IMG/VR virus record: IMGVR_UViG_3300021843_000436
Origin: an uncultured virus (IMG/VR IMGVR_UViG_3300021843_000436)
Lineage: Duplodnaviria > Heunggongvirae > Uroviricota > Caudoviricetes
Direction: 5' to 3' (one strand)
Length of the DNA: 64,000 nt
The position numbers and the translations under genes are program-made. This document shows positions 18,174-64,000 of the stretch, one piece after another (positions within the stretch are counted from its first letter, which is position 1; each line of letters opens with the position of its first letter). The notes beneath the pieces are model-generated. The model was not told the DNA's origin. It did not search any database and saw only the letters and a program-made list of their open reading frames with translations.

Positions 18174-19025
18174 ATGAACTCTGAAGCATTTACTCATCCT
18201 GAATTAAATGAAACTTATGAAAAATTGTATTTAGGAAATTTGATTAAATATTTGGAATCCAAAAATGAAAATAAATTAGTTGGGCTACTAAAGGATTCTA
18301 TCTGCTGTATTACTACATCTACTAATTTTTCTAAGATTAGGTGGGATGGTTTTAGTGCTGAGGTTTATTTCCATGTTCCTGTTGGCAAAATTGGAGACAT
18401 AAATGTGGAAGATAGAAAGAAGCTAAAAACGTATTGCAATGATGTTATGCCAAAGAGTTATGGATATGACATAATGAAAGTTGAGATCATACCAAACACT
18501 GAAGCAGATGGAACGATGTCAAGAGAACTGACTCGCCTCCAGGAGCAAATTCAACGAAGTTCTTCGCTTGATATTTTACCTTCAGAGTTAATTGAAAAAG
18601 GAAAAGATATGGCAAATGTATATTTATATTTATATTGCGTAGAGAATTCCTTGAGGTTATTCATTGAAAAAATAGGGCAGGATAAATTTGGCAATGACTA
18701 CCTCAATTCTTTAAGTCTTAGGGCAGATACACGAAGGAAAATTACATCAAGAAAGGAGGGAGAAGATAAGAATAAATGGCTAAGAATCAGAGGAGATTCA
18801 GACATTTTCTATATGGATTTTGAAGAACTAGGCAGCATAATTCAAAATAATTGGGAAATATTTAAAGATTATTTTCCCTCAATGGCATGGATTATGCAGA
18901 AAATTGAAGAATTAGTGGTTTGCAGAAATCTAGTCGCACATAATAGCTACATTGGATTGGATGAGCGTGAGCTAATATCTTCGTATTATAAAAGTATTTT
19001 AAAGCAAATAGGGTCATGCATATGA
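18174..19025 (+). CDS. Swt1-like HEPN-domain protein (moron)
   Basis: YLYCVENSLRLFI...MDFEELGSII..NWEIFKDYF...RNLVAHN (RxxxxH); AT-rich, CG present, own upstream TTTAAATA box. Confidence 0.8.
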   Translation: MNSEAFTHPELNETYEKLYLGNLIKYLESKNENKLVGLLKDSICCITTSTNFSKIRWDGFSAEVYFHVPVGKIGDINVEDRKKLKTYCNDVMPKSYGYDIMKVEIIPNTEADGTMSRELTRLQEQIQRSSSLDILPSELIEKGKDMANVYLYLYCVENSLRLFIEKIGQDKFGNDYLNSLSLRADTRRKITSRKEGEDKNKWLRIRGDSDIFYMDFEELGSIIQNNWEIFKDYFPSMAWIMQKIEELVVCRNLVAHNSYIGLDERELISSYYKSILKQIGSCI

Positions 19026-47530: not shown

Positions 47531-50500
47531 CTAATCCTCCTCCATGACCTCCAGGGGCATGTCAAATTTACTGAATCTATGGACCTTTGGACTCAGGAAG
47601 AGATCCTGGGCCAGAGAGGGGATCTTCTCATCTTCAGTTACCCTGAAAAATTTTCCTCCAGTGCAAGAGACTGAGATGCTACCTGTGATGGATTTACCCC
47701 ATTTTAGTGGCCTAATCTTCGGTGAAGACATGGCTATACATTCATGGGCCTCAAAGTCATTGTATAAGACGATCCTGAAATATTCATTTTCAGCCTTAGA
47801 CCTGAATGGCCCTGCTATGTAACCCACCACCCACTGGCCTTTAGCAGAAGACTTCAGATGCCACATCACTTCATTCTCTTCCGTGGTTTTCTCCTTTGCC
47901 TGCAGCTCCTCCAGGATGTAATACCAGTATGCTCCTCTGTAGATCCAGACATTCCTGAAGCCATCCTCCAGGTTTGGAATCTGGCTCTTTGCTCTAAAGA
48001 CTCCTGAGCCATCCTCTACAGTAAAGTCCTGCATGGTGGCCTCCATGATGACCTGGGCCTTCATGACCTCACCCTCCTCCATCTGACCCAGTGTCCTAGG
48101 ATTGATGGTCTTATAATGAGGCAGTGGGATCATGGTATAGTCCTTCAGGGAGACCTCCCTGCCATCCAGACAGCCAGTGGCCTCAAAGAGCTTCTGTTTA
48201 GCATCTGTGAGGGGCTTCCCTCCTTTGATCCTGTCTATGAGCTGCTGGCCAGTCTTCAGAGCTATGCCCTTTATGCAAGTCAGCCCCAGCTGGATCTCAT
48301 CCCTCTCACCAGTGGTCTCCAGCTGTGGATGCCTTATGCTGGGCCTCCTGATGGGGATCAGCATCCTATCAGCTTCTCTCAGGATCTCCCTTCTCTCTTT
48401 GCCCTCTGTTTTAATGTTCATCCAGGTAGCTGCAGCCAGGGCTGGATTCAGCATCTTCAGATAGATGGTCATAAGAGAGACCCAGGCATAGGCCACTGCA
48501 TGGGATCTGTTAAATCCATAGCCAGCCCAGAGGAGGATCTCCTTCCACTGCTTCTCCTTTGCAGGGTCCTTCAGCTGCTCCTTCAGGGTACCGTCCTCCA
48601 GGGCCTGCAGCTTATCCAGCTTCTTCTTTGAGATTGCTCTCCTGGCCTGGTCTGCTTCCTGCATGGACATACCAAAGATTATATTCAGGGCCTTCAGGAC
48701 CTGCTCCTGGTAGATGATCAGTCCATAGGAGTCCTCTGTGCCCTTCATGGCCTCATAGGGCTCTCCATCCACTCTCCTCTTCTTATAGAGATCAATGAGG
48801 GGCCTGGTGCCTGGTCTATTAAGGGCCACTATTCTGACCACATCTTCAAAGTGCTCAGGAGGGACCTCCTTCATGAGCTGCTCTCCAGCCTGGGTGCCCA
48901 GCTGGAAGATGCCGTAGGGATAGAGCCTGGCAAAGAGCAGCATATCAGCTATGTCATCATTTGGCAGCTGGTGAAGCTCCCAGTCCAGCTGTTTCATGGC
49001 TGCAGGAAGGTCAACTCCCTCAGAGACAGAGGTTCTGGGCTTCAGCATCTCAGCTATAAAGTCCAGGGTATCCAGACCCAGCACATCAAATTTAGGGATG
49101 TTCAGCTCCAGGATGTCCCTCAGCTCCAGCTCTATGGCCAGCCCTGGGCCATCCTTCTTTGCCCTGGTGAGTGGGATAGTCTCTGCAATATTTGGCAGGG
49201 CCACCACACCAGCTGCATGGATTCCCTTATGCCTGATATGGCCATCCAGGTGATCAGTTAGCATCCTGATGCTTTCTGCCACTTCATCTGAGAGCTTATC
49301 AGTGAGGAGGGCCTCCTGATCCACCCTCTTCAGCCAGCAGGCATCTCTGATCATGAGCTTCTCATGCCACCTGGCATAAGTGGAGATCTGAGCTGTTTGC
49401 CTGCCCACAATATCTCCCAGGATCTGAATGGCCTCCTGCCTTCTGGACTTCTGGACATCCAAATCAAAATCTGGAGGGTCCTTTCTTCCTTCTGGGAGGA
49501 ATCTCTCAAAGAGGAGCTTTTGAGTGATGGGATTAATTCTGGTGATGTCCAGGATGTAGCTGATGAAGCTTCCTGATGCTGATCCTCTTCCAGGTCCTCT
49601 GAGGATGCCAGCCTTATCCAGCCTCTGACATAGTTCATATTCAATGATGAAATACCAGGCAAAGTCAGACTTTGTAATCCTGTCGTATTCCATATCTACC
49701 CTGGCAGCCAGAGCCTCTTCTCCTCCCATAGCTTCTAACTCTGCCTTTGGGGTTCTTCCCAAAAAGGCCAGGAAACTCTTATACACCAGCTCCCTGAAGT
49801 TGAGATGAGAGACACAATCCTTAGGAGCGGGAAAAGTCCTGGGCAGGCTAAAGTCAAAGTCAGAAGCAAACTTCCTGGTCATATCGATAACCATAGCAGC
49901 CTCATCTTCCTCCAGGCCCAGGTTTGCTATGACCTCAGCTTCACTCTGATAATAATAAGAATTGCCAGGGAAATAATCATCCTTATAGACCAGGGTCCTG
50001 TCTTTGTAGATAATGCTGGCAGCTGCCACTTTTGGACCCCTCTCATCCCAGGAGTTATAATGGGAGTCACAGGTGGCTATCACCAGGAGATCCTCTCTGC
50101 AGGCCAAGGCATAAGCCCATCTGTTAAACTCATGCTGCTGCTCCAGGTCTGGATGAGGCATGATCTCTATGACCAGTTCTCCTCCTGCTGCAGCTATCTC
50201 AGCCCAGGTCTTCATGAACCAGGCTTCAGCCTCTTCTGGGTCTTCCATCCACTTCTGGAAAAGGAGACCACCTTTGCAGGCAGTGCCAAAAGCCAACCCC
50301 TGGGCATGCTCTATGAGGTGCTGCAGAGGGATCAGGGGCTTCCTCTTAAAGTGATTCACCACAGCATCATTATGAAGATGGATCAGATTCTTCCAGCCCT
50401 CAGGAGATTTGACCCAGATGGTCATGTGGCCCTTCCCAGGACCTTCTGCCTTGTTGTCTATGGAGAGAATATAATCAATGCTACCCCATTCTTTCTTAAG

Positions 50501-51478
50501 CTGTTTTGCCACCTGAGATCTACCATTAAGCCATTCATTGAATTTCTCAGGCAATTCTTTCATAGCTTCAGTCTCTGTAACTTCGTTTGCCTTGCCCAAA
50601 GTAAGCTTAGAGAGATGCTCACCATTATGGGTCATATTCACAGTCCAGTATTTCTTTCCATTTTTGTTAGTGTCATTTTGGACTGGATGAGCATCAATGA
50701 TCACAGTGCATGAATTCTCATCTCCTTCTTCAATTTCTTGAATATAGCCCTCATAACCAATGATGGGCTGGACCCCATGCTTCCTGCAGGCTGATTCAAA
50801 CTGATATACTCCAGCCATAGTGCCATGATCAGTCAGGGCCAGGTGAGTGATCCCCAGGTTTGCTGCCACCTTTGCCATGTCCTCAGGGCTCCTGATGGAG
50901 TCTCCCACACTAAAATCACTATGGCAGTGGAGTTGTGGGATCTGATGGACCTGGGGTGGCTTTGTCCCTGGGAAATTTTCAAAGAGATATGTGAGAGCCG
51001 TCAGCAGGTCTGATCTATACATATCCTCAGTATATCGTGAATTATGGCTCAGATAATTAGGATGATAGACCATCTTATGCTCGATATTCAAAGCAGTGAG
51101 AGCTTTATCTGCAGTATTTCCCAGGGCCAGGATCAGCTTAGGCTGGAAACATTCCACCTGCTGCTTTAGGAATGACAGGCAGGAGTTAATCTCCTGGGCT
51201 CTGGGAGCCCTCAACCCTGGAGGGTGACACTTCAGGACATTGATCATAGCATAATTCTCCATCCCCAGCTCTGAGAGGAGCTTCCTGAGAGTATGCCCAT
51301 CAGGTCCACAAAATGGGACTCCTCTCTCCAGCTCCTTTTCCCTGGGAGCCTCACCCACACAAAGGAGATCCACTTTCTCAGGATCTCCTATGATGGTGCC
51401 CACCACATGGCCCTCCAGTTTGCAGACATTGCACTGCCTGATCTTCTGGCCAATTTCTTTGAGCTTCTCCATCTGCAT
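47531..51478 (-). CDS. dnaE: Family C DNA polymerase (DnaE-like) with N-terminal family-4 uracil-DNA glycosylase domain
   Basis: UDG: CNVC, VGEAP, NVLKCHPP, YHP. PHP: LHCHSDFS, ALTDHG, TCDSHY. Pol: GPGRGSASGS, FERFL, PPDFDLD, HAAG, KFDVLGL, YGFNRSHAVAY. Confidence 0.93.
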   Translation of the reverse strand: MQMEKLKEIGQKIRQCNVCKLEGHVVGTIIGDPEKVDLLCVGEAPREKELERGVPFCGPDGHTLRKLLSELGMENYAMINVLKCHPPGLRAPRAQEINSCLSFLKQQVECFQPKLILALGNTADKALTALNIEHKMVYHPNYLSHNSRYTEDMYRSDLLTALTYLFENFPGTKPPQVHQIPQLHCHSDFSVGDSIRSPEDMAKVAANLGITHLALTDHGTMAGVYQFESACRKHGVQPIIGYEGYIQEIEEGDENSCTVIIDAHPVQNDTNKNGKKYWTVNMTHNGEHLSKLTLGKANEVTETEAMKELPEKFNEWLNGRSQVAKQLKKEWGSIDYILSIDNKAEGPGKGHMTIWVKSPEGWKNLIHLHNDAVVNHFKRKPLIPLQHLIEHAQGLAFGTACKGGLLFQKWMEDPEEAEAWFMKTWAEIAAAGGELVIEIMPHPDLEQQHEFNRWAYALACREDLLVIATCDSHYNSWDERGPKVAAASIIYKDRTLVYKDDYFPGNSYYYQSEAEVIANLGLEEDEAAMVIDMTRKFASDFDFSLPRTFPAPKDCVSHLNFRELVYKSFLAFLGRTPKAELEAMGGEEALAARVDMEYDRITKSDFAWYFIIEYELCQRLDKAGILRGPGRGSASGSFISYILDITRINPITQKLLFERFLPEGRKDPPDFDLDVQKSRRQEAIQILGDIVGRQTAQISTYARWHEKLMIRDACWLKRVDQEALLTDKLSDEVAESIRMLTDHLDGHIRHKGIHAAGVVALPNIAETIPLTRAKKDGPGLAIELELRDILELNIPKFDVLGLDTLDFIAEMLKPRTSVSEGVDLPAAMKQLDWELHQLPNDDIADMLLFARLYPYGIFQLGTQAGEQLMKEVPPEHFEDVVRIVALNRPGTRPLIDLYKKRRVDGEPYEAMKGTEDSYGLIIYQEQVLKALNIIFGMSMQEADQARRAISKKKLDKLQALEDGTLKEQLKDPAKEKQWKEILLWAGYGFNRSHAVAYAWVSLMTIYLKMLNPALAAATWMNIKTEGKERREILREADRMLIPIRRPSIRHPQLETTGERDEIQLGLTCIKGIALKTGQQLIDRIKGGKPLTDAKQKLFEATGCLDGREVSLKDYTMIPLPHYKTINPRTLGQMEEGEVMKAQVIMEATMQDFTVEDGSGVFRAKSQIPNLEDGFRNVWIYRGAYWYYILEELQAKEKTTEENEVMWHLKSSAKGQWVVGYIAGPFRSKAENEYFRIVLYNDFEAHECIAMSSPKIRPLKWGKSITGSISVSCTGGKFFRVTEDEKIPSLAQDLFLSPKVHRFSKFDMPLEVMEED

Positions 51479-54861: not shown

Positions 54862-55096
54862 TGGCAGGGGTCAAACATCGAACTTTACGGAGTTCACACC
54901 GTTATTTCGATATGCAGAGACACCTGGCGGGGGTGGCAGGGGTACCCCTCCCCTAACCTTTACTATACTCTCCCTCCTATACTATTTTCCTTACTCTTCT
55001 AATAGAGGAGGGGTACCCCTGCCATGTCTGCCAGGCAGCTCCTGTTATTGAAATAACGACGTGAACTGTGTAAAACCTAGAGATTGACCCCTGCCA
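54862..55096. repeat. Large imperfect inverted-repeat element, copy B (putative origin/second cis site)
   Basis: 54930-55036 is identical to 5570-5676 (107 bp, direct orientation); arms TGGCAGGGGTCAA...TTGACCCCTGCCA; extra tandem TGGCAGGGG pair at 55151-55169. Confidence 0.8.
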
Positions 55097-55194: not shown

Positions 55195-55228
55195 CTATAA
55201 ATACCATAGTAACTATGGTATAAGTGGA
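55195..55228 (+). promoter_or_regulatory. TATA promoter with operator copy 6
   Basis: CTATAAATACCATAGTAACTATGGTATAAGTGGA; nearly identical to 58195-58228. Confidence 0.8.
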
Positions 55229-55368: not shown

Positions 55369-55648
55369 AAAGATATTATTTCCTCATGGGAAGACGGTGA
55401 TCACTCCTGCAGCTCTGGAGGTCCTGCAGGAGCTGGACATCATCCAGCTCCTGGGATGGCACCTAACTGGAGACTGGAGTCAGATGTCTGAGGCTGACAG
55501 GGCTGCTAATGCCCAGGCCCTGGAGAATGGCTCCAGGATCTTCAGCTCCTATGAGGTGAAGGGCCAAAACATCTGGGTCATCACTGATGCTGTGGGTGAG
55601 GATGGACAGAGGGCTAGCACCTGCATTCTATTGCCTGGAGAATACTGA
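55355..55648 (+). CDS. Conserved mobile-element protein of unknown function
   Basis: LFPHG..VITP, H..GDW, AN..AL..GSRIFSSY, IWVIT, T.ILLP.EY; GGAGG before ATG 55355. Confidence 0.75.
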   Translation: MPIGKKILFPHGKTVITPAALEVLQELDIIQLLGWHLTGDWSQMSEADRAANAQALENGSRIFSSYEVKGQNIWVITDAVGEDGQRASTCILLPGEY

Positions 55649-55805
55649 ATTGATCTAATATACTAGAGAAAGGAAAAGGTGATTTGAGGGAATTGTTGAT
55701 GAGTTATGATGTATCTTCTGGTGTTTTTTGCACTCAATTGATTGAAGTGATACTATTTTAGGAAAAGCATGATCCCCAAGTAAAACGGAAGGATTTGAAT
55801 TAAAT

Positions 55806-56927
55806 TCATAAAATTGGAATGTCAGATTTTTTCAATCCATCTTTTGTTTTGAAATATTCTGAAAGCTCTCCGTTTCTGATGAATTCCCTCGATTTGCTGA
55901 ATTCATTAGAACTTTGATAGTATTCATGAAGCCGATTTGCTGAATTGAACACTTGATTTGGGTATTCTTCACAGCAATCGCTATAAGAAGCTATGAAATC
56001 GTCTGTATTTTTGCCCTTGCATATAGGGCAGTCACAATTTAATGAAGTTCCAAAATCTATCCAATCTTGGAATCTATGGAAAGCTAAAGGAATTGGATCA
56101 AAGCGTTTCGTAGATCCTATTGGTTTAGGACTGAGTATTTCGCTTCCTGTTCTTGGAGGAACATAACGGCCAATTCTTACGCTAAAAGAGTCTATACCCC
56201 ATTTCTGCAGTAAATGCATGGTCGATGTAGGATTTGTCCTAGCGAGTTCACGAGGAACTCCTGACATTTGGAGAAGCACATTAGTCTCTCTATTTTCCCA
56301 TAGGAGGCGATAATTTTGAACATTTTTATGGATTGGTCTGTATATTAATCCAATAGTATGTATTTGATCTGTCTCAGAATGTTCTAGTAATGCCAAGAAC
56401 CTTTCATGAAAAACATCGATATCAAGCCCCATATCCAAATAGATTAACGGTTCTCGATTCTCTGACAAGACTTCTTCAGCAAAACTTTCTGCAATTTCTT
56501 CAAAATCTGGCGCAGAAGGAGGAATATTTGGTATGCTGATAAAATCCAGATTGCTCATACGTTGAAGCTCTAATAATTGCTTGATACTGCTATCATTTAG
56601 ATTTGTGCTGGACGGCAGCTGTGGGTAATATCGTTTTATTGTATAATCCATTTTATCTGAATAGAAGTCTATAGTCCTTTTCCTGTTATAAAAAGACCCA
56701 TTTTCTTCCATGAATTTTTTCCAGTTATCACTATAAAATTGTCCGACAATTTCAGATAATTCATTATCCAAAGGCGGTTCAAAAGGTAACTTAGCTTTAT
56801 ATTGGAATTCGGATGAAGTTACCGCCCTGTTGGGTGTCTTAAAGGTGCCACGATCTGTAATTATAGATAACGCTCTCCCTCCAAAACGATCTAATTCACC
56901 CTCAATAGATATACGTGTGATTCTCAT
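55806..56927 (-). CDS. Divergent TGT (tRNA-guanine transglycosylase)-fold protein
   Basis: RGTFKTP start, GIDSFS, CDCPIC...H zinc site; TAATG-coupled to the upstream gene; AT-rich with normal CG. Confidence 0.6.
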   Translation of the reverse strand: MRITRISIEGELDRFGGRALSIITDRGTFKTPNRAVTSSEFQYKAKLPFEPPLDNELSEIVGQFYSDNWKKFMEENGSFYNRKRTIDFYSDKMDYTIKRYYPQLPSSTNLNDSSIKQLLELQRMSNLDFISIPNIPPSAPDFEEIAESFAEEVLSENREPLIYLDMGLDIDVFHERFLALLEHSETDQIHTIGLIYRPIHKNVQNYRLLWENRETNVLLQMSGVPRELARTNPTSTMHLLQKWGIDSFSVRIGRYVPPRTGSEILSPKPIGSTKRFDPIPLAFHRFQDWIDFGTSLNCDCPICKGKNTDDFIASYSDCCEEYPNQVFNSANRLHEYYQSSNEFSKSREFIRNGELSEYFKTKDGLKKSDIPIL

Positions 56928-57889
56928 TATGCCCTCTTCCGTGCCCAATTAGGAAGCACCTTTTCTTTTATTCTAGATTCTATAGTATAGCCTTGATATT
57001 TCTTATAGACATCTTTTAGAATACCATCATTTCCAAGCTCATCCACACCTCTTCTCCATGAACGTAGGTCTTCTTTCAAAGCATCTGGCAATGAATTATA
57101 AATTCTTCCAGCCTCCATTTTTCCCTTCTCTGTAAGGATGAAGCTTTCTTTATCAGATGAACGCTTCCCCTTTATAATGATTAAACCTTGCCGCTCTAAG
57201 GAATATAATGATTGATCTATATCAAAACTATAAGGGCCATAATAGTAGGGAATAAAATTTGGGGATATTGCAGGGACATTAAATTCCCTGAGTTTTTCTT
57301 TAAATAATAAGAATGATGCTTTCATAAGGCTGATAGCCCCTTTGACCGGTCTTTTTGATGAACATAGCAGCACTAGAATAAGCTCTGTCGGATCAAGCGG
57401 GCGAATGCTAAATCCTTTTAAAATTTCTCTAATTTTTGGGAGCGATTTCTCACTAAAATAAACCATTCCACAATTAGGGCATCCAAATCCGTCGAACTCT
57501 CCAAATACCTCTCCTGATATCTCTAAAGGGTATATGCCAGGCTGCAAGTTTGCTTTTTCGCATCGAGAGCACAAGTCTTTTCGTCTATTTCGTCGCATGT
57601 ACCGGTTTTGGCGATAAATTTTATCTTTTACTGAATGGTTGTTGTTACCTTCTTTCCATGTTGTTATAACATTGAAATGACATGGCTTATTGTCCGCTAT
57701 TACAACGACACATCCTTGCTGATACTTATCACCATCGCCATTATCATTATTTGATTTCGTTCCACTAACTATGGCATCCCTTATATCCCCCTCGCTTAAG
57801 CTATCATTAATCATTTCAATTATAGCATGGAAAGATAAACTGAGTTGGCATCTGATTTTCTCTACAGCAATCTGGCTTTCGAGATGCAT
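56927..57889 (-). CDS. DUF4258-like + YgiT-type Zn finger + Panacea/SocA-like wHTH fusion
   Basis: LSFHAIIEM..SLSEGDIRDAI..G...VITTW; CSRC...CPNCGMVYF; LMKASFL...FIPYYYGPYS..I...VYKKY. Confidence 0.6.
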   Translation of the reverse strand: MHLESQIAVEKIRCQLSLSFHAIIEMINDSLSEGDIRDAIVSGTKSNNDNGDGDKYQQGCVVVIADNKPCHFNVITTWKEGNNNHSVKDKIYRQNRYMRRNRRKDLCSRCEKANLQPGIYPLEISGEVFGEFDGFGCPNCGMVYFSEKSLPKIREILKGFSIRPLDPTELILVLLCSSKRPVKGAISLMKASFLLFKEKLREFNVPAISPNFIPYYYGPYSFDIDQSLYSLERQGLIIIKGKRSSDKESFILTEKGKMEAGRIYNSLPDALKEDLRSWRRGVDELGNDGILKDVYKKYQGYTIESRIKEKVLPNWARKRA

Positions 57890-58194
57890 CGGAACTCGTG
57901 AATACTCTCCTACTATTTATCCTCATTCAATGATTTCATTGCGACACCTTTTTCATTCTCATTTCATATAACAACCCCTTCCACTCAATTTGCGTTTTAG
58001 TATTCTATGGAAAGAGAGGAAGGCTACGGGTTTAAAAGCGTAAGTCTCATGCGCGAAAGTCCTTACCTATCCGATTTTTAAAAACCCTATGGCACCAGCA
58101 CAGGATAACTGCTACCACGCTTGATTTCTCTCATAAGAATGTAAAGCACATAATGGCTAGGTTTTGTATGGAGCATAAGTTCTTTAATGCAAAC

Positions 58195-58228
58195 CTATAA
58201 ATACCATAGTTTCTATGGAATAAGTGGA
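58195..58228 (+). promoter_or_regulatory. TATA promoter with operator copy 7
   Basis: CTATAAATACCATAGTTTCTATGGAATAAGTGGA. Confidence 0.8.
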
Positions 58229-58237
58229 GGCCATAGC

Positions 58238-58603
58238 ATGGACATTAAGGCATTCACTACCTATCTAAAAGCCAGTCAGCTTGGAAGCCTGCTGGATGAA
58301 GCCTATGGAGCTGGGAAAACTGAGTCTGAGGCACCCAGGCTCTTTGCCGTTTATGAAAGCTACCAGAAGGGAGACCTGAATCTCCAGGAGATGGCAAAGG
58401 AGATGAATCTCACCACTCTGGGTCTGGATTCTGAGAAGATTAAAAGATGGCTCCCTAAGCTGGTGCCCAGACATGCCCTTGGCTGCAAGGTCCAGGTAGT
58501 GGAGATCACTCCCAGGACTAAAGGCTTTGAAGATGAGGCAAAGGACTGGGCAGCCAGAGGTGGCCAAATCAAGGACATTAAGGGAGGAGAGCTAACAATA
58601 TGA
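58238..58603 (+). CDS. HTH-domain protein
   Basis: YQKGDLNLQEMAKEMNLT; GGAGG before ATG 58238 (ORF track start 58187). Confidence 0.55.
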   Translation: MDIKAFTTYLKASQLGSLLDEAYGAGKTESEAPRLFAVYESYQKGDLNLQEMAKEMNLTTLGLDSEKIKRWLPKLVPRHALGCKVQVVEITPRTKGFEDEAKDWAARGGQIKDIKGGELTI

Positions 58604-59133
58604 AACAACTCACTGAGACTGATGCAAAGGTTTTGGCTGGCATAAGTGGAGCAAAGGTCATTGTGGAGGTCATTGCTGCCTCTGAGCAGCCAACTGAACC
58701 TCTTTTTATGAGGCTTCACTATGTCAATAACAGAGAGGGCCAGGAGTTTTATCAGAAGGAGCCCATGATCCTGGTGCCTCTGGACTATCTGGTGGAGAAA
58801 ATTAACTATGCCTGCTTTATGTCTGCAGCCCTGGGAGCTGACATCCTTCTCCAGGTCTCTGGACCAAAGGGATTCACAGATGAGCTGGAGGCTGCTTTTA
58901 AGTCTCTGGTGCCTCTCATGAGCCAGCAGTATGGTCTGACTGTAATGGACACTTTCACTGAAGAAGTCCAGGAAGAGGACCCCTCTGCTGAAGCTCAGAG
59001 GCTGGGCAGGGAGATAGTGGAGAAGGCTCTGGGAAGGAGACTCCCTCCAGGAGCTGAGGTCCAGATCCTTAAGCTCACAGGAAGCCAGCAGGGAGGCCAC
59101 TGTGACTGTCCAGATTGTGCTGGCCACAGATAA
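58600..59133 (+). CDS. Hypothetical protein with C-terminal HCDCPDC
   Basis: ATGA-coupled operon member. Confidence 0.65.
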   Translation: MKQLTETDAKVLAGISGAKVIVEVIAASEQPTEPLFMRLHYVNNREGQEFYQKEPMILVPLDYLVEKINYACFMSAALGADILLQVSGPKGFTDELEAAFKSLVPLMSQQYGLTVMDTFTEEVQEEDPSAEAQRLGREIVEKALGRRLPPGAEVQILKLTGSQQGGHCDCPDCAGHR

Positions 59134-60778
59134 GCTGGTCAGGAATTATCTGATCGTAAGAGGTCAGGAAGATGAGATCTGGAAAGCCAAATCTCATCTT
59201 TCCAGGCTGGGCTTTGTTTGGCAGCCTGATAAGAAATACTGGTTTAGGCTCTTTGATTTAGAGATCGTCAGAAAGCTGATGGACTGGAAACAGGCTGATC
59301 TGACTCCTAAACTGCTGAAGTTCTATCAGACAGAGACTATGAAGAATACTCCCACCAGGGAGTTTGTTAGCACTTTCAGGCCAGACATGCTGATGACATA
59401 TCAAATCCAGGGAGTGGAGACAGCACAGAAGGCAGGAAATTTCCTCTTTGCTGATGACATGGGCCTGGGAAAGACAGCTCAGACTTTGAAAATAGCAGAG
59501 GAGCTGGGCTGCAGAACCCTGGTCATCTGCCCCAGCACTTTGGTGGATGAATGGGGCTCCCAGATAAAGAAGTTTACTGAGTCCGAGACCGTCCTCATTA
59601 AGGGCTCCTGGCCCGTCAGAGCAAAGCTTTGGGAGGTCTGGAAGTCCTGTCATCCAGTTCATTATGTGGTCATGTCCTGGGACAGCCTGAGGAATAAGAA
59701 GGATCTGGCTTCTGCTCAGGATTACTGCAGGGATGGCCTCATCATCTTTGATGAGATTACAAAGGGAAAGAATGCCCAGGCTCAGAGGTCAAAGGCTGCA
59801 GCTTCTCTGAAGGCCAGGAGGGTCCTGGGGATCACTGGCTCTCCAATTGAGAATAATTTAAAAGAGCTGTGGCACATTTTGAGACTGGTCAGGCCAGAGC
59901 TTTTCCCTAACTATGAGAGGTTTGCTAACACCTTCATGATTCTGGAAGAGAAAAACTTTGGTGGCTATAACTTCAAGGACATTGTAGGCTATAAAAATCT
60001 GGATGTACTGAAGCAGATCATAGCTCCCTATTATATCAGGAGACTCAGGACAGAGGTCCTGCAGCTGCCACCCAGCAGCACTGTGGTTAGAAGAGTGGAT
60101 CTATCAGATCAGCAGCAGGAGATAGAGCAGCTCCTTTTGAAAGCTTCTCAGGAGGCTTTTAATATGGATAGGATGGAGCTGGTGCTGAAATACTTCACCT
60201 ATGGGATGGAGAATTTCATCAGCCCCTGCCTGCTCCCACAGGGATGGACTCCAGATGAGAACCTTCTGCAGGAGGAGCAGCTCTTAAAACTCATTCAGGA
60301 GGCTTCAAAGGACCCCACTCCCAGGGAGTCTGAGGTCCTGGAAATCCTGAAGGAATCCAGCCCTAACAAAATCATAGTCTTCTCAGGCTTCAAAAAGGCT
60401 CTGGAGAGACTGGCTGGTTTTGTCCAAGAGCCTATCTCCTGGCTGACCTCTGGGGTGGATGTCCAGGCTGAGCTGGCCACCTGGAAGGGAGAGGGCTCCA
60501 GGCTGCTTTTCATGACATCTGCAGGAGCTATGGGTCATAATCTTCAGGAGCAGTGCTCCATGATGGTGGTCCTCAGCTCCCTGCATAACCCCAGGATGAT
60601 GGACCAGCTCCTAGCCAGGATCTCCAGAATGGGCCAGAAGAAGCCTGTCACCTACTATGTTCTGGATTCTGACAGCCAAATAGAGCAGAAGCTCCATGTA
60701 AACACTGCAGAGAAGAATGAGCTATCTGAGAATGTTTTCAGGAATACTGATCTGGCAAAGATGGTGATGTGCCAATGA
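59102..60778 (+). CDS. SNF2-family ATPase/helicase (SMARCAL1/HARP-like)
   Basis: LFADDMGLGKT, LVICP, IIFDEIT, TGSPIEN, YIRR, GHNLQ, QLLARISRMGQ. Confidence 0.88.
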   Translation: MTVQIVLATDKLVRNYLIVRGQEDEIWKAKSHLSRLGFVWQPDKKYWFRLFDLEIVRKLMDWKQADLTPKLLKFYQTETMKNTPTREFVSTFRPDMLMTYQIQGVETAQKAGNFLFADDMGLGKTAQTLKIAEELGCRTLVICPSTLVDEWGSQIKKFTESETVLIKGSWPVRAKLWEVWKSCHPVHYVVMSWDSLRNKKDLASAQDYCRDGLIIFDEITKGKNAQAQRSKAAASLKARRVLGITGSPIENNLKELWHILRLVRPELFPNYERFANTFMILEEKNFGGYNFKDIVGYKNLDVLKQIIAPYYIRRLRTEVLQLPPSSTVVRRVDLSDQQQEIEQLLLKASQEAFNMDRMELVLKYFTYGMENFISPCLLPQGWTPDENLLQEEQLLKLIQEASKDPTPRESEVLEILKESSPNKIIVFSGFKKALERLAGFVQEPISWLTSGVDVQAELATWKGEGSRLLFMTSAGAMGHNLQEQCSMMVVLSSLHNPRMMDQLLARISRMGQKKPVTYYVLDSDSQIEQKLHVNTAEKNELSENVFRNTDLAKMVMCQ

Positions 60779-61563
60779 AAGGCAGCTATGTGATGCTGTT
60801 GCCTCAGAGGAAAGGGAATATCCTCCTCCCTCTGGAGGTGGCCCAGAAGCTCCAGGATCTGCCAGTCCATGACGAACATGGACAGAAGGTGGGCTTCATT
60901 CAGGAGGTCAGGAAGGGCCAGAATGAGGGATACTGGGAAGCAGTGGTCAAAGTCACCAGCCCTGCATTCATGGATAGGGTGGGCTTTTCTGTGGCTGACC
61001 TTTCTCCTATTTTCGATATGCAGAGCACCAAATATGATCTAATGATCGAAGAGGTGGCCCTGGTCTCAAAATATGACCAGCTGGATGAGGCCACAAAGGA
61101 AGGAGACCAGAACTCTATCAAAGTCCTTGAAAATGAGATCAAATCTCATGAGAGAAAGCAAAAACGACTGCAGCAGAAGCAGCAGCAGATAAAATCAAGT
61201 CCAATGTTTAAGGGAGGAATTATTAAAATGGCGGAAGGAAAATCAGTCATGTATCTATCACAGAAGACTTTGAGAAGTGTCACAGAAAGACCAACAAACC
61301 CACTGGCAGCCAGCCTGTTTTCAGAGTGTTGCGCTGAAGTGGTGAAGCTTCTGGGCACTGCTGCTGTGGTGGCCTCCAATGAGGATGACCTCACCATCTT
61401 AAAACCCTCCCATGTGGCCAGGGGCCTGCAGATGGTCCTGCCAAAGAATGTGGCCAATGAGATCATCAGGGATGTTTTCAAGGGCAAAGTACCTGACGCC
61501 CTTATTGAAACCCTAACAAGGGAGCAGCCTTTGACAGTTAAGCCAGCTCAGAGGAGTGAGTGA
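60769..61563 (+). CDS. Prohead-protease-like domain + coiled coil + C-terminal histone-fold domain
   Basis: N-term PVHDEH..VG, VGFSV, IEEVALV; C-term helix/loop spacing matches the histone fold (..TILKPSHVARGLQMVLP..); internal GGAGG at 61213-61217 before in-frame ATG 61228. Confidence 0.5.
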   Translation: MPMKGSYVMLLPQRKGNILLPLEVAQKLQDLPVHDEHGQKVGFIQEVRKGQNEGYWEAVVKVTSPAFMDRVGFSVADLSPIFDMQSTKYDLMIEEVALVSKYDQLDEATKEGDQNSIKVLENEIKSHERKQKRLQQKQQQIKSSPMFKGGIIKMAEGKSVMYLSQKTLRSVTERPTNPLAASLFSECCAEVVKLLGTAAVVASNEDDLTILKPSHVARGLQMVLPKNVANEIIRDVFKGKVPDALIETLTREQPLTVKPAQRSE

Positions 61564-61861
61564 AATGGAGCACTTTCTTTCTGTCCTGGTAGCCTATCTC
61601 ACTGGAGCCACCCTGGTGGAAATGTATGGCCCCTGGGCTTTTTATCACCTCCTGGTCTGGATCTGGGATAAGTTCTATGGTCTGAGCTGGTGGGTTTTGA
61701 GTGGAGCCTGGTGGATTCTTATTAACATCCTCCTGCCCCTGGTCTGGATCTCTGCAGGTATTTCTCTCATCTATCTCACCCATAGGGGCTGGCAGGGAAA
61801 GATGAGGGCCTGGGCCTGGGAGAAGGATCACACCTCAAAGCTCAGGAGAGTAGGTGAGTGA
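61556..61861 (+). CDS. Membrane protein
   Basis: Trp-rich hydrophobic segments. Confidence 0.65.
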   Translation: MSEMEHFLSVLVAYLTGATLVEMYGPWAFYHLLVWIWDKFYGLSWWVLSGAWWILINILLPLVWISAGISLIYLTHRGWQGKMRAWAWEKDHTSKLRRVGE

Positions 61862-62214
61862 GCATGGAGAGAAAAAGCTTCAGGGATATGCCTCAGGTGG
61901 AACTGGTGCTGATCCCAGAGCTGGGACAGCCCAGGGCTCTCCCTTATCCCTCTGTGGAGGAGGCAAAATTCTCAGCCAGAGGAATCTCCAGGAAAGGACC
62001 TCAGAAGTATGTGGCCTGGTATGTCCTGGATGATGACGGCCTGATCCTGGCCTCTCATGGCTATTCTTTGCCCAGTCTGAAGTGTCTCAGACCAGATGCC
62101 CACACTGAGAGGGACCTGCAGAGAGTCCAGGAGAGGGGCCTTAACAGAGATGAAAAGGCCCAGCTCCTGGTGGATCAATTGGCAAATGAAAGGAGAGCAG
62201 CTGCATGGAATTGA
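61858..62214 (+). CDS. Hypothetical protein
   Basis: Overlapping operon member. Confidence 0.6.
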   Translation: MSMERKSFRDMPQVELVLIPELGQPRALPYPSVEEAKFSARGISRKGPQKYVAWYVLDDDGLILASHGYSLPSLKCLRPDAHTERDLQRVQERGLNRDEKAQLLVDQLANERRAAAWN

Positions 62215-62990
62215 TAGCCAGTATAGGGCAGGCTGTGGATGCCTTAGAAGGCATGAAGAAAAAAGTGGTCACCTTCCAGGTCCTCTCAGGGATAGATGGT
62301 GCTCTGTCCAATATGTGGACCATCACTCACAATTTTATAGTAGCTCAGAACGGGCTGGGATATGATCCCAGCCAGCTCCCTGCTTATCAGGAGGCTAAAT
62401 TCCTCTGGCTGAAGATGCTACTGCTAGGGATGCCAGTTAAGCCTGCTCAGTCTCCTTTCTGTAGCTATTTCAGTGAGAGATGTGATCAGTGTGGCTTTGT
62501 TAAAAATCATGGCTCCTGCTATGACTTTGGATCTGACTATTATAAATTGATCACCTCTCTGGCTAAAATGATTAAGCTCTCTAATTATGAGCCAGAGCCC
62601 TGGACAGAGTATGTCAAACTGAGCCCAGTCACAGCACAGGCTTATGATATTTACACTTTCAATATGATGGAGGCAGCTCAGACCATTGAATCTCACATAA
62701 CCTCATGGAGGAAGATCTTCAAGGCTACCAAGTCTTTTGAGGAAATAATGCAGGATAGAGTCATGTTCATGAATCTGATCCTTAATGATCTTCCTCTGGA
62801 GATTTGGGACACTTATGCTGGCACTTGGAGGATCGCAGCTTTTCAGGAGATGCCTATTTCCTACCAATTCCCATTAGAGGGAGTTAAATTCACTGATCAC
62901 GAAATAAACACCACATTAGGTCTGAGGAAGTTCAGGGATGAGACTTTGACTGCCCTAAAGAATTACTGGAAGCCAGGAGAGACATTTTAA
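62205..62990 (+). CDS. Hypothetical protein with Cys cluster
   Basis: SPFC...CDQC...C. Confidence 0.65.
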   Translation: MELIASIGQAVDALEGMKKKVVTFQVLSGIDGALSNMWTITHNFIVAQNGLGYDPSQLPAYQEAKFLWLKMLLLGMPVKPAQSPFCSYFSERCDQCGFVKNHGSCYDFGSDYYKLITSLAKMIKLSNYEPEPWTEYVKLSPVTAQAYDIYTFNMMEAAQTIESHITSWRKIFKATKSFEEIMQDRVMFMNLILNDLPLEIWDTYAGTWRIAAFQEMPISYQFPLEGVKFTDHEINTTLGLRKFRDETLTALKNYWKPGETF

Positions 62991-63235
62991 TGGTTGATCA
63001 TTTAGAGGAGTTTAAAAAGGGTCTGCAGGCCATTAGGAATTATCTGGATGAGAAGGCTCCAGACTGGGTGACTGTCACTTTGAAGGTGGAGATAGAGCCC
63101 TGCCACTCCAGGGTGGAGATGCTGGAATTAGTAGAGCAGACGGGTCCAGCCTCCTTTAATGTCACCCAGTTTCCTCCACTCAGCATAAAGACCTGTGACG
63201 TAACCATGAGAGTGGGCATTCTGGAGGCACTTTAA
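62990..63235 (+). CDS. Hypothetical protein
   Basis: TAATG coupling on both sides. Confidence 0.65.
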   Translation: MVDHLEEFKKGLQAIRNYLDEKAPDWVTVTLKVEIEPCHSRVEMLELVEQTGPASFNVTQFPPLSIKTCDVTMRVGILEAL

Positions 63236-63900
63236 TGAGTGGCCTGGAAAACTTTTCCATTTTTGATATCCTGGGAATGCCTGAGCAGAACCTGAAGGCC
63301 CAGGTGAAGAGATCGCTGGACTTCTGGCTGAAGGAGGTCAGAATGGTCAAAGATCCTGGAGAGGCCCTGGCCCTGTTGAATCAGGCTGAGGAATGGACTG
63401 CAGAGCAGAAGATCACTGTGATAAAGGGAATGCTTACCCTGAATCTGGTCTCCTTTCTGACCTCCAATAAGGTGGACTTCCTGGACTATGATGGCTGGAA
63501 GAAGTACATGCAGGAGAATCCCTTTGTCCCAGCTCAGACTCTGGAGATCCCTAATGATAAGGTAGTGGATCTCTCTGTCCAGGCCATGAAGGTCCTGAGG
63601 CCAAAGGTCACCAGGGACATGATGAGAAGTGGCAGGGCTCCAAAGCCACAGAAGCTCCTGGGCCAGCTGGTGGAGATCTGGATCAAAGAGGATGGAGAAA
63701 AGAAGCTCTTCTTCATCGGCTGGGCTATTTATGCCACAGTAATGAGGACCCAGGCTCAGGCAGGGATGTCTATTCCCATTGAGACAAAAGCAGTGGCAGA
63801 AGCCATCAGACCTGAGAAGCCACTTAAACCCTTGGATGAATCTGGACAGTTATGTGATGTAAATGACATAATGGCCAGATTAAAGAAGATTAGAGCTTAA
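63235..63900 (+). CDS. Hypothetical protein
   Basis: TAATG coupling; core-like codon usage. Confidence 0.7.
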   Translation: MSGLENFSIFDILGMPEQNLKAQVKRSLDFWLKEVRMVKDPGEALALLNQAEEWTAEQKITVIKGMLTLNLVSFLTSNKVDFLDYDGWKKYMQENPFVPAQTLEIPNDKVVDLSVQAMKVLRPKVTRDMMRSGRAPKPQKLLGQLVEIWIKEDGEKKLFFIGWAIYATVMRTQAQAGMSIPIETKAVAEAIRPEKPLKPLDESGQLCDVNDIMARLKKIRA

Positions 63901-64000
63901 ACAGGGAATTATGGAATGTTATTTTAACAAATAGGGACATGATAAGGGTTAAATATGAGAATAGTAGGTCTTAAAGTGTCTGCTGGCAAAATGGCCTCCA

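Follow-up and report, generated by a model that had tools for sequence, protein, structure and literature searches.

A TGT-fold protein without the transglycosylase aspartates beside a Panacea-like fusion gene in an uncultured virus: a possible tripartite toxin-antitoxin module

Closest described systems and the viral cassette

MqsRAC is counted among the toxin-antitoxin-chaperone (TAC) systems. As TAC is presented in 10.1101/2024.02.24.581848, antitoxin stability and virus sensing both depend on the third protein, and PMC9712102 describes fused toxin-antitoxins on temperate phages that are switched on by direct binding. Here, a cassette of two minus-strand genes was analysed in a 64,000-nucleotide stretch of DNA (hereafter the window) that forms the first 64 kb of the 73,845 bp record of an uncultured Caudoviricetes virus (IMG/VR IMGVR_UViG_3300021843_000436). 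Gene 1 (56927..57889, 320 amino acids) joins a DUF4258-type BECR domain, a basic linker, a YgiT-type zinc finger, a Panacea/DarG-C-like winged helix and a basic C-terminal tail. Gene 2 (55806..56927, 373 amino acids) encodes a predicted TIM barrel with the fold of tRNA-guanine transglycosylase (TGT) and without the transglycosylase aspartates, and is termed the pseudo-TGT below. The cassette probably has a role in conflict or as a toxin-antitoxin system. We read it, tentatively, as a TAC-like tripartite toxin-antitoxin defence module in which a predicted RNase would be the warhead and a dead TGT the regulator or sensor.

The likeness to TAC (HigBAC, CmdTAC; 10.1101/2024.02.24.581848) lies in a predicted translation-targeting toxin, an antitoxin and a conserved third protein, together with a swappable warhead; the DUF4258 domain with its YgiT finger also parallels MqsR/MqsA. 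The cassette differs in that its third part is a TGT-fold barrel rather than a SecB-like chaperone, and in that toxin and antitoxin are fused, the antitoxin having at its end a Panacea domain with a short basic tail where TAC has a helix-turn-helix and ChAD. PanTA systems (SocA, DUF4065) similarly place a Panacea-like fold with a GP motif beside a predicted toxin and are mobile and patchy. However, the cassette motif is GPY rather than GPV, its Panacea match is below the Pfam cut-off, and the third gene, sporadic in PanTA as described in PMC8832971, is here the most constant neighbour. The main text of that paper does not contain the word "transglycosylase", and its 25 third-gene clusters could include the cassette family. 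CapRel (PMC9712102) likewise holds toxin and antitoxin in one chain, is borne by a temperate virus and exists in both fused and split forms, although its toxin and sensor folds are unrelated to those seen here and it is described with no third gene. DarTG and the PADLOC system PDC-M19 share the DarG-C/Panacea-like domain (7yk3, Z score 8.5; PDC-M19A, E 2e-13), but the cassette is without a macrodomain or DarT and matches M19A only partially; no description of PDC-M19 was found in the literature.

Among TGT-fold proteins, QTRT2 shares a fold without transglycosylase catalysis (Z 20.9, root-mean-square deviation (rmsd) 3.8, 310 aligned), whereas the cassette has no catalytic TGT partner gene nearby and sits in a mobile operon resembling toxin-antitoxins. 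Cap10 of type IV CBASS (10.1101/2025.04.06.647259) also uses the TGT fold in defence, bound to a partner protein. According to that preprint, it keeps D73, D122 and D248, is without the zinc site and needs the QueC-like Cap9 and a CD-NTase; the reverse holds here, and both partners are missing. DpdA and the BRC TGT (PMC10164549, PMC12839542) are likewise divergent TGT folds in defence loci, and some relatives of the cassette lie in DUF499/DUF1156 operons, but the partners DpdB/C, HerA, PglZ and GNAT were not seen in its conserved unit. The BRC-system TGT is proposed in PMC12839542 to be an active modifier. A combination of TGT fold, Panacea and DUF4258 was not found described in the literature, where supplementary tables, which lay outside the search, could list the cluster. 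In this comparison, the cassette would function like a toxin-antitoxin pair with a third component, and it belongs to no named family tested.

The two proteins and their recurrence in archaea

The structure model of gene 2 has a pLDDT of 90.7. All 50 of the Foldseek matches listed for it were TGTs, and a wide fold search aligned it with the archaeal TGT 1iq8 at Z 23.2 (rmsd 3.9, 307 aligned). Scores of 22.2, 15.9 and 15.4 were obtained for bacterial TGT, Cap10 and DpdA, respectively, the highest-scoring barrel outside the TGTs reaching 12.9, and the TM score to TGT structure clusters was 0.69. Profile alignment of the family with four host archaeal TGTs gave a probability of 97 (E 8e-11), and a sequence search against solved structures returned no match. 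Gene 2 is thus modelled as a TGT fold with a TIM barrel, an N-terminal sheet and a C-terminal zinc subdomain. Its look-alikes in the Atlas form unnamed clusters that are 88-100% archaeal, and a profile search recovered at least 343 representatives of 50% identity clusters at E 0.001 or better. The wide alignment used below comprises 121 rows, namely the query and 120 near-full-length proteins among 150 listed matches. The Pfam TGT model matches only 7 of these 121, and none of them matches a PADLOC model at E 0.001. No NCBIfam model covers the window protein, and the family bears no Pfam, NCBIfam or PADLOC name. In a quick tree, where the Panacea-linked group has 82% support, the family branches apart from host archaeal TGTs.

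Residue registers were taken from profile alignments, not from residue-level structure overlay. At the position of the TGT nucleophile, gene 2 has S249 (56181..56183), within GIDSFS where TGTs have GxDxFD. This column holds Ser in 62 rows, Ala in 24, Thr in 12 and Cys in 7, and Asp or Glu in none of the 121. The general acid/base motif DSG[GSA] is likewise found in 0 of 121 rows. Among 57 locus proteins, this motif occurs once, in L061 at about residue 10, outside the barrel. A separate true TGT is present in each of the five hosts tested, and all five of these carry the motif. Since DSGG and the nucleophile are gone throughout the alignment, gene 2 is likely a pseudo-enzyme and not a base-exchange effector; on these sequence grounds, it very probably has no transglycosylase activity. 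By comparison, both aspartates are reported as essential and three as invariant in DpdA (PMC10164549), and the Cap10 aspartates are also essential (10.1101/2025.04.06.647259). The base-reading Asp after strand 4 aligns to N134, in a column where 41 of the 121 rows have Asp and 13 have Glu, so that part of the base pocket may survive in some members. The zinc site C298, C300, C303 and H334 (55926..56036) is complete in 48 of 48 close family members; in the wide family CxCxxC is kept in 63/121 and H334 in 112/121. No column is invariant across the wide family, and most near-invariant residues coincide with structural residues of TGT. The preliminary description, made from the sequence alone, had noted GTFKTP, CxCxxC..H and GIDSFS in gene 2 together with an absent DSGG, and had proposed a TGT fold. 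Both the motifs and the fold are borne out. It had also cast gene 2 as a nucleic-acid-acting effector of TGT type, a role that the loss of both catalytic Asp positions in every row speaks against.

In gene 1, residues 15-80 (57650..57847) form a DUF4258-like domain, a predicted RNase toxin of the BECR fold. The Pfam match to DUF4258 covers residues 18-77 at E 0.0016, below the curated cut-off, and PF14076 was found on 15 of 38 gene 1 homologues. Residues 9-84 were compared with five BECR toxins (CdiA-CT 5i4q, YoeB, RelE1, ParE2 and BrnT), giving Z 6.5-7.1 with 5i4q as the best, on a structure model of only moderate confidence for this domain. Each of these lines is modest, and jointly they are consistent with a BECR fold. 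C70, H71 and T76 are invariant in 30 of 30 close relatives and H21 is kept in 15 of the 30; in forms where the DUF4258-like gene is separate, no column is invariant throughout. DUF4258 is given in PMC11980606 as experimentally undescribed, with 17 fusions to MqsA listed, and is grouped with colicin-like RNases in 10.64898/2026.08.28.747851. The zinc finger (CxxC..CxxC, residues 107-140, 57470..57571) matches the YgiT-type model TIGR03831 at E 0.067, below the cut-off, and one relative matches MqsA_antitoxin at E 0.0045. The four finger cysteines, together with YGPYS of the following domain, are invariant in 30/30 rows. The Panacea/SocA/DarG-C-like domain with the GPY motif (residues 165-305, 56975..57397) matches SocA_Panacea over residues 188-302 at E 0.029, with 15.7 bits against a cut-off of 25.7. 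Its closest fold is the C-terminal domain of DarG in 7yk3 (rmsd 4.1, 132 aligned), its PADLOC PDC-M19A match covers only positions 7-133 of 294, the N-terminal part, and its GP motif is invariant in 47/47. In the fold search, the gene 1 model also matched A8TKI0, a stand-alone 159-amino-acid protein of Sulfolobus spindle-shaped virus 4 (E 4e-9, 30% identity), a likeness that most likely runs through the Panacea-like domain.

Recurrence was scored in 62 loci besides the window. After removal of L008, a spurious match, of L020, L021, L022 and L074, which have less than 400 bp upstream, and of six identical duplicates, 51 distinct loci were left. A Panacea-like gene lies immediately 5' of the pseudo-TGT on the same strand in 36 of them; one gene intervenes in L104, and the two are head-to-head in L059 and L060. 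Beyond the Panacea gene, a BECR-like unit was found in 34 of the 36 (29 DUF4258-like, 5 with a zinc-ribbon gene), a count that is partly circular because some of these loci also went into the BECR-like profiles; the remaining two loci lie at contig ends. The zinc-ribbon alternative (158 amino acids) has a weak likeness to the DUF4258-like genes (E 0.003) and received no name from the Atlas. Because the Panacea gene and the BECR-like unit adjoin at these frequencies, the conserved unit, as judged from gene order and profiles, is one of three parts, of which gene 1 of the window fuses two. This triple fusion occurs only in the clade of the window; outside it, the toxin-like unit is encoded by its own gene, which in five loci bears the zinc motif in place of the Panacea gene. 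Panacea and pseudo-TGT are the constant pair, the toxin-like unit varying in form and fusion; among archaeal lineages the components remain associated, in several different fusion arrangements. L059 and L060 have a fusion of the Panacea domain to UPF0175 with a PIN gene adjoining, a predicted toxin-antitoxin pair in PMC2701414, so that the warhead appears to vary while Panacea and pseudo-TGT stay. L009, the closest relative, shares 73-80% protein identity with the cassette, and its similarity at the DNA level is confined to the two genes. In this comparison each domain has a nonsynonymous divergence (pN) of 0.12-0.16, and synonymous divergence (pS) is 0.71-0.79, near saturation. The recurrence of the pair and the low pN beside nearly saturated synonymous sites argue that the pairing is not due to chance.

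The family is patchy, being present in 9/351, 15/351, 7/301 and 13/284 genomes of samples that overlap, include the seed genomes and contain incomplete genomes. Of the 39 Panacea-linked loci, 13 have neighbours from restriction-modification (RM), DUF499/DUF1156 (BREX-related), PIN/toxin-antitoxin, STAND, ATPase-TOPRIM or nuclease genes, and L005, L006, L053 and L059 lie inside such an operon; other loci are placed among housekeeping genes. QueC is encoded directly upstream in L002, L003 and L004 only, three close relatives in one small clade, and a queC link was rejected as lineage-specific. Neither queC nor dpd genes were found beside other loci or among the scanned viral open reading frames (ORFs), and CD-NTase, Cap9 and DpdB/DpdC were absent from the two-gene operon and the neighbours scanned. 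The phage and plasmid collections gave no match. Viral contigs yielded one other locus, L086, a second virus record with the module. There (L086:6980-8642) the form is split, the pseudo-TGT is shortened to 213 amino acids, and a tail-region gene adjoins. Tandem Panacea-free pseudo-TGT genes, the second of them shorter, occur at L107:6393-8867 and L109:6378-8520.

The optional insert and its virus

The cassette lies in an unstranded accessory insert of 2555 bp (55636..58190) in a variable viral slot, delimited by contigs of runs X11, X13 and X7. In X11 and X13, two of the eight runs compared and from two studies, contigs link 55635 to 58191 with 70 different letters between, and the insert is optional in the virus. 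Runs X6, X9, X17 and X15 left the island uncovered without a bridging contig and were not counted as empty sites; X17, the single RNA run compared, had no reads over the island. Contigs of X7 carry more than 255 bases of different DNA at both edges (window 55646 and 58191), and the slot therefore likely holds alternative cargo in related strains. Pieces within the island were recovered at 99% identity or higher from run X5, which belongs to a study other than the possible source samples.

The island has a GC content of 0.370 against 0.477 and 0.488 in its flanks, and an observed/expected CG ratio of 0.74 against 0.07 and 0.06; the neighbouring viral genes are on the plus strand. CG dinucleotides are nearly missing from the viral backbone at large (window 1-55700 and 58200-64000, ratio 0.06-0.07). 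The genes join at a TAATG stop/start overlap (56925..56929, minus strand), where the gene 2 ATG shares its A with the gene 1 TAA and homologues begin at that Met; the overlap suggests that translation of the two is coupled. These features agree with the preliminary description, which had reported an AT-rich, CG-normal island antisense to its flanks with two genes joined by TAATG. Several of its other readings also hold: the DUF4258, YgiT and Panacea calls in gene 1, made on matches below cut-off, are backed by fold matches and conservation; the pair co-occurs elsewhere; PADLOC, Pfam and NCBIfam contain no matching system under a name; and the optional insert, the patchy spread and some of the neighbours fit mobile, defence-like behaviour.

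No repeat marking the island edges was found. A 47-bp repeat with copies 3 kb apart was rejected as a boundary, being a recurrent viral motif. Scans for sigma-70 promoters and terminators gave nothing above shuffles, and the scan does not cover archaeal promoters. A TATA-like box followed by the palindrome CCATAG-N3-CTATGG recurs, mostly just 5' of gene starts, at window positions 55196, 58196, 43784, 47367, 7259 and 946 and at genome positions 68171 and 70761; it is likely a viral promoter with operator. A non-coding inverted repeat at 54884-55074 (72-nt arms, 76% complementary, 47 nt spacing) is a frequent contig breakpoint in related strains. Searches with two flanking viral genes brought no further locus.

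Pfam matches among the viral ORFs include integrase, primase, a portal-like protein, tail sheath, baseplate J, DNA polymerase III alpha, ligase and NrdD, from which the virus is likely temperate and contractile-tailed. The sequencing runs that contain it come mostly from anaerobic digesters and sludge. The cassette homologues point to an archaeal host, and methane-making archaea are the likely hosts. A second AT-rich cargo gene at 18174-19025 (GC 0.33, CG ratio 0.44) encodes a Swt1-like HEPN protein that matches PADLOC PDC-M34B at E 2e-38. At 47531-51478, an N-terminal uracil-DNA glycosylase domain is fused to a bacterial-type DNA polymerase III alpha.

Proposed mechanism, alternatives and meaning

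In the proposed TAC-like mechanism, the DUF4258-type domain would cut tRNA or mRNA, and the zinc finger and Panacea domain would neutralise it. The pseudo-TGT would hold the Panacea domain or the basic tail and, in a role like that of the TAC chaperone, would stabilise the complex and keep it inactive. A viral product that displaces or reshapes this contact would free the RNase and abort the infection, and carriage on a virus would guard the lysogen from competing viruses. The preliminary description had envisaged a two-gene toxin-antitoxin or anti-virus system. Its idea of a module is retained, whereas two components give way to three, and the likelier warhead is the DUF4258-type unit, which that description took only as a segment of a fusion and which most lineages encode as a gene of its own. 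As a further and rather improbable possibility, the dead barrel may be an archaeal innate-immune receptor that reads a 7-deazaguanine-linked viral signature, with Panacea as the adaptor to an interchangeable RNase warhead. Candidate signatures would be modified viral nucleic acid, the free base, a viral TGT or DpdA-like protein, or a TGT inhibitor for which the barrel would serve as decoy.

Several observations weigh against the tripartite TAC-like module. Every family match of gene 1 is under its curated cut-off, and the fold scores of Z 6.5-8.5 are middling. At the DUF4258 His (H21), 11 of 30 close relatives have Glu, so that the warhead may be weak or dead. Panacea is missing altogether in 12 of the 51 loci, and the circularity of the BECR-like count reduces its weight. 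L059 and L060 are head-to-head and belong to one distant branch, representing one event at most, and their PIN genes may adjoin by chance within a defence island. Two-thirds of the Panacea-linked loci are without a recognised defence neighbour, the scanned neighbours having been picked by eye and with no background rate. The polar residues R34, E40, N76, R226, H238, E335 and S339, conserved in gene 2 without an obvious TGT counterpart, may form a binding site or a new active site. Furthermore, six of the 12 Panacea-free loci carry a convergent gene whose end abuts the pseudo-TGT stop (L058:7036-7377, L069:7124-7573, L105:3422-3721, L106:4008-4346, L118:6132-6479 and L119:2657-2986; about 100-115 amino acids, that of L069 longer). 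Its product of about 110 amino acids is similar to strands 2-4 of the pseudo-TGT barrel (probability 89, E 2.6e-6) and is possibly a fragment mimic or inhibitor, which fits a sensor no better than an effector that has to be blocked.

The last two points lend themselves to a different arrangement, in which gene 2 is the effector and would poison the cell or the virus, either through new barrel chemistry or by attaching to tRNA or to the TGT of the host, with Panacea as its antitoxin and the BECR unit as an accessory or autoregulatory part. The usual target of neutralisation by Panacea, as described in PMC8832971, is the neighbouring gene's product, and the link between Panacea and pseudo-TGT is the tightest one. 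Nevertheless, we consider this unlikely: the nucleophile position is without Asp or Glu in all rows, the wide family has no invariant column and mostly structural near-invariant residues, and a toxin-like fold is already at hand in 34 of the 36 loci. Somewhat lower in our estimate, and improbable, is a tRNA-presenting cofactor, with the pseudo-TGT serving a colicin-like DUF4258 nuclease in the manner of QTRT2 and being needed for killing rather than silencing. QTRT2, which gene 2 matches well, is described as a non-catalytic TGT that stabilises tRNA binding, and gene 2, in contrast to Cap10, retains the zinc site that in QTRT1 is linked with the binding of nucleic acid (both from 10.1101/2025.04.06.647259). 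Moreover, the grouping of DUF4258 with colicin-like RNases (10.64898/2026.08.28.747851) and the CdiA toxin 5i4q as the best match of the N-domain would suit such a nuclease. However, the zinc cysteines are gone in about half of the wide family, and the fixed neighbour is an antitoxin-like gene, not the nuclease. Gene 2 is also acidic (net -9), though true archaeal TGT barrels are likewise acidic and net charge was no guide to whether nucleic acid or protein is bound.

A purely addictive or maintenance module, which would stabilise the provirus or the island but play no part against other viruses, is very doubtful. It would suit carriage by an integrase-encoding virus and by the second virus record L086, and insertion that is often between housekeeping genes. 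Yet related strains do without the cassette, a third part of 373 amino acids under purifying selection would be superfluous for simple addiction, and in four loci the cassette lies inside RM and BREX-related operons. Least probable by far is a working 7-deazaguanine system, whether Dpd-like DNA modification or protein deazaguanylation as with Cap9/Cap10. The TGT fold with its scores to Cap10 (Z 15.9) and DpdA (Z 15.4) and the queC gene directly upstream in L002, L003 and L004 are in its favour, but DpdA and Cap10 keep and require the aspartates that are lost here, and queC is confined to one small clade, with no queC or dpd beside the other loci scanned.

To our knowledge, few anti-virus systems are typical of archaea. 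The known TGT-fold defence proteins DpdA and Cap10 are active enzymes, whereas the family of the cassette appears to have lost TGT catalysis; it is unnamed, comprises at least 343 clusters (50% identity) and has a fixed place next to a Panacea-like domain and a toxin-like fold. If the TAC-like module proves true, it would add a third mode of coupling between a sensor and a toxin-antitoxin pair and would give DUF4258 its first testable function, in a compact two-gene version that is easily cloned. A receptor for deazaguanine-linked signatures, if true, would establish a new class of sensors and provide defence against viruses that hide their DNA with deazaguanines. Such cargo is exchanged at one slot by what is likely a virus of methanogens.

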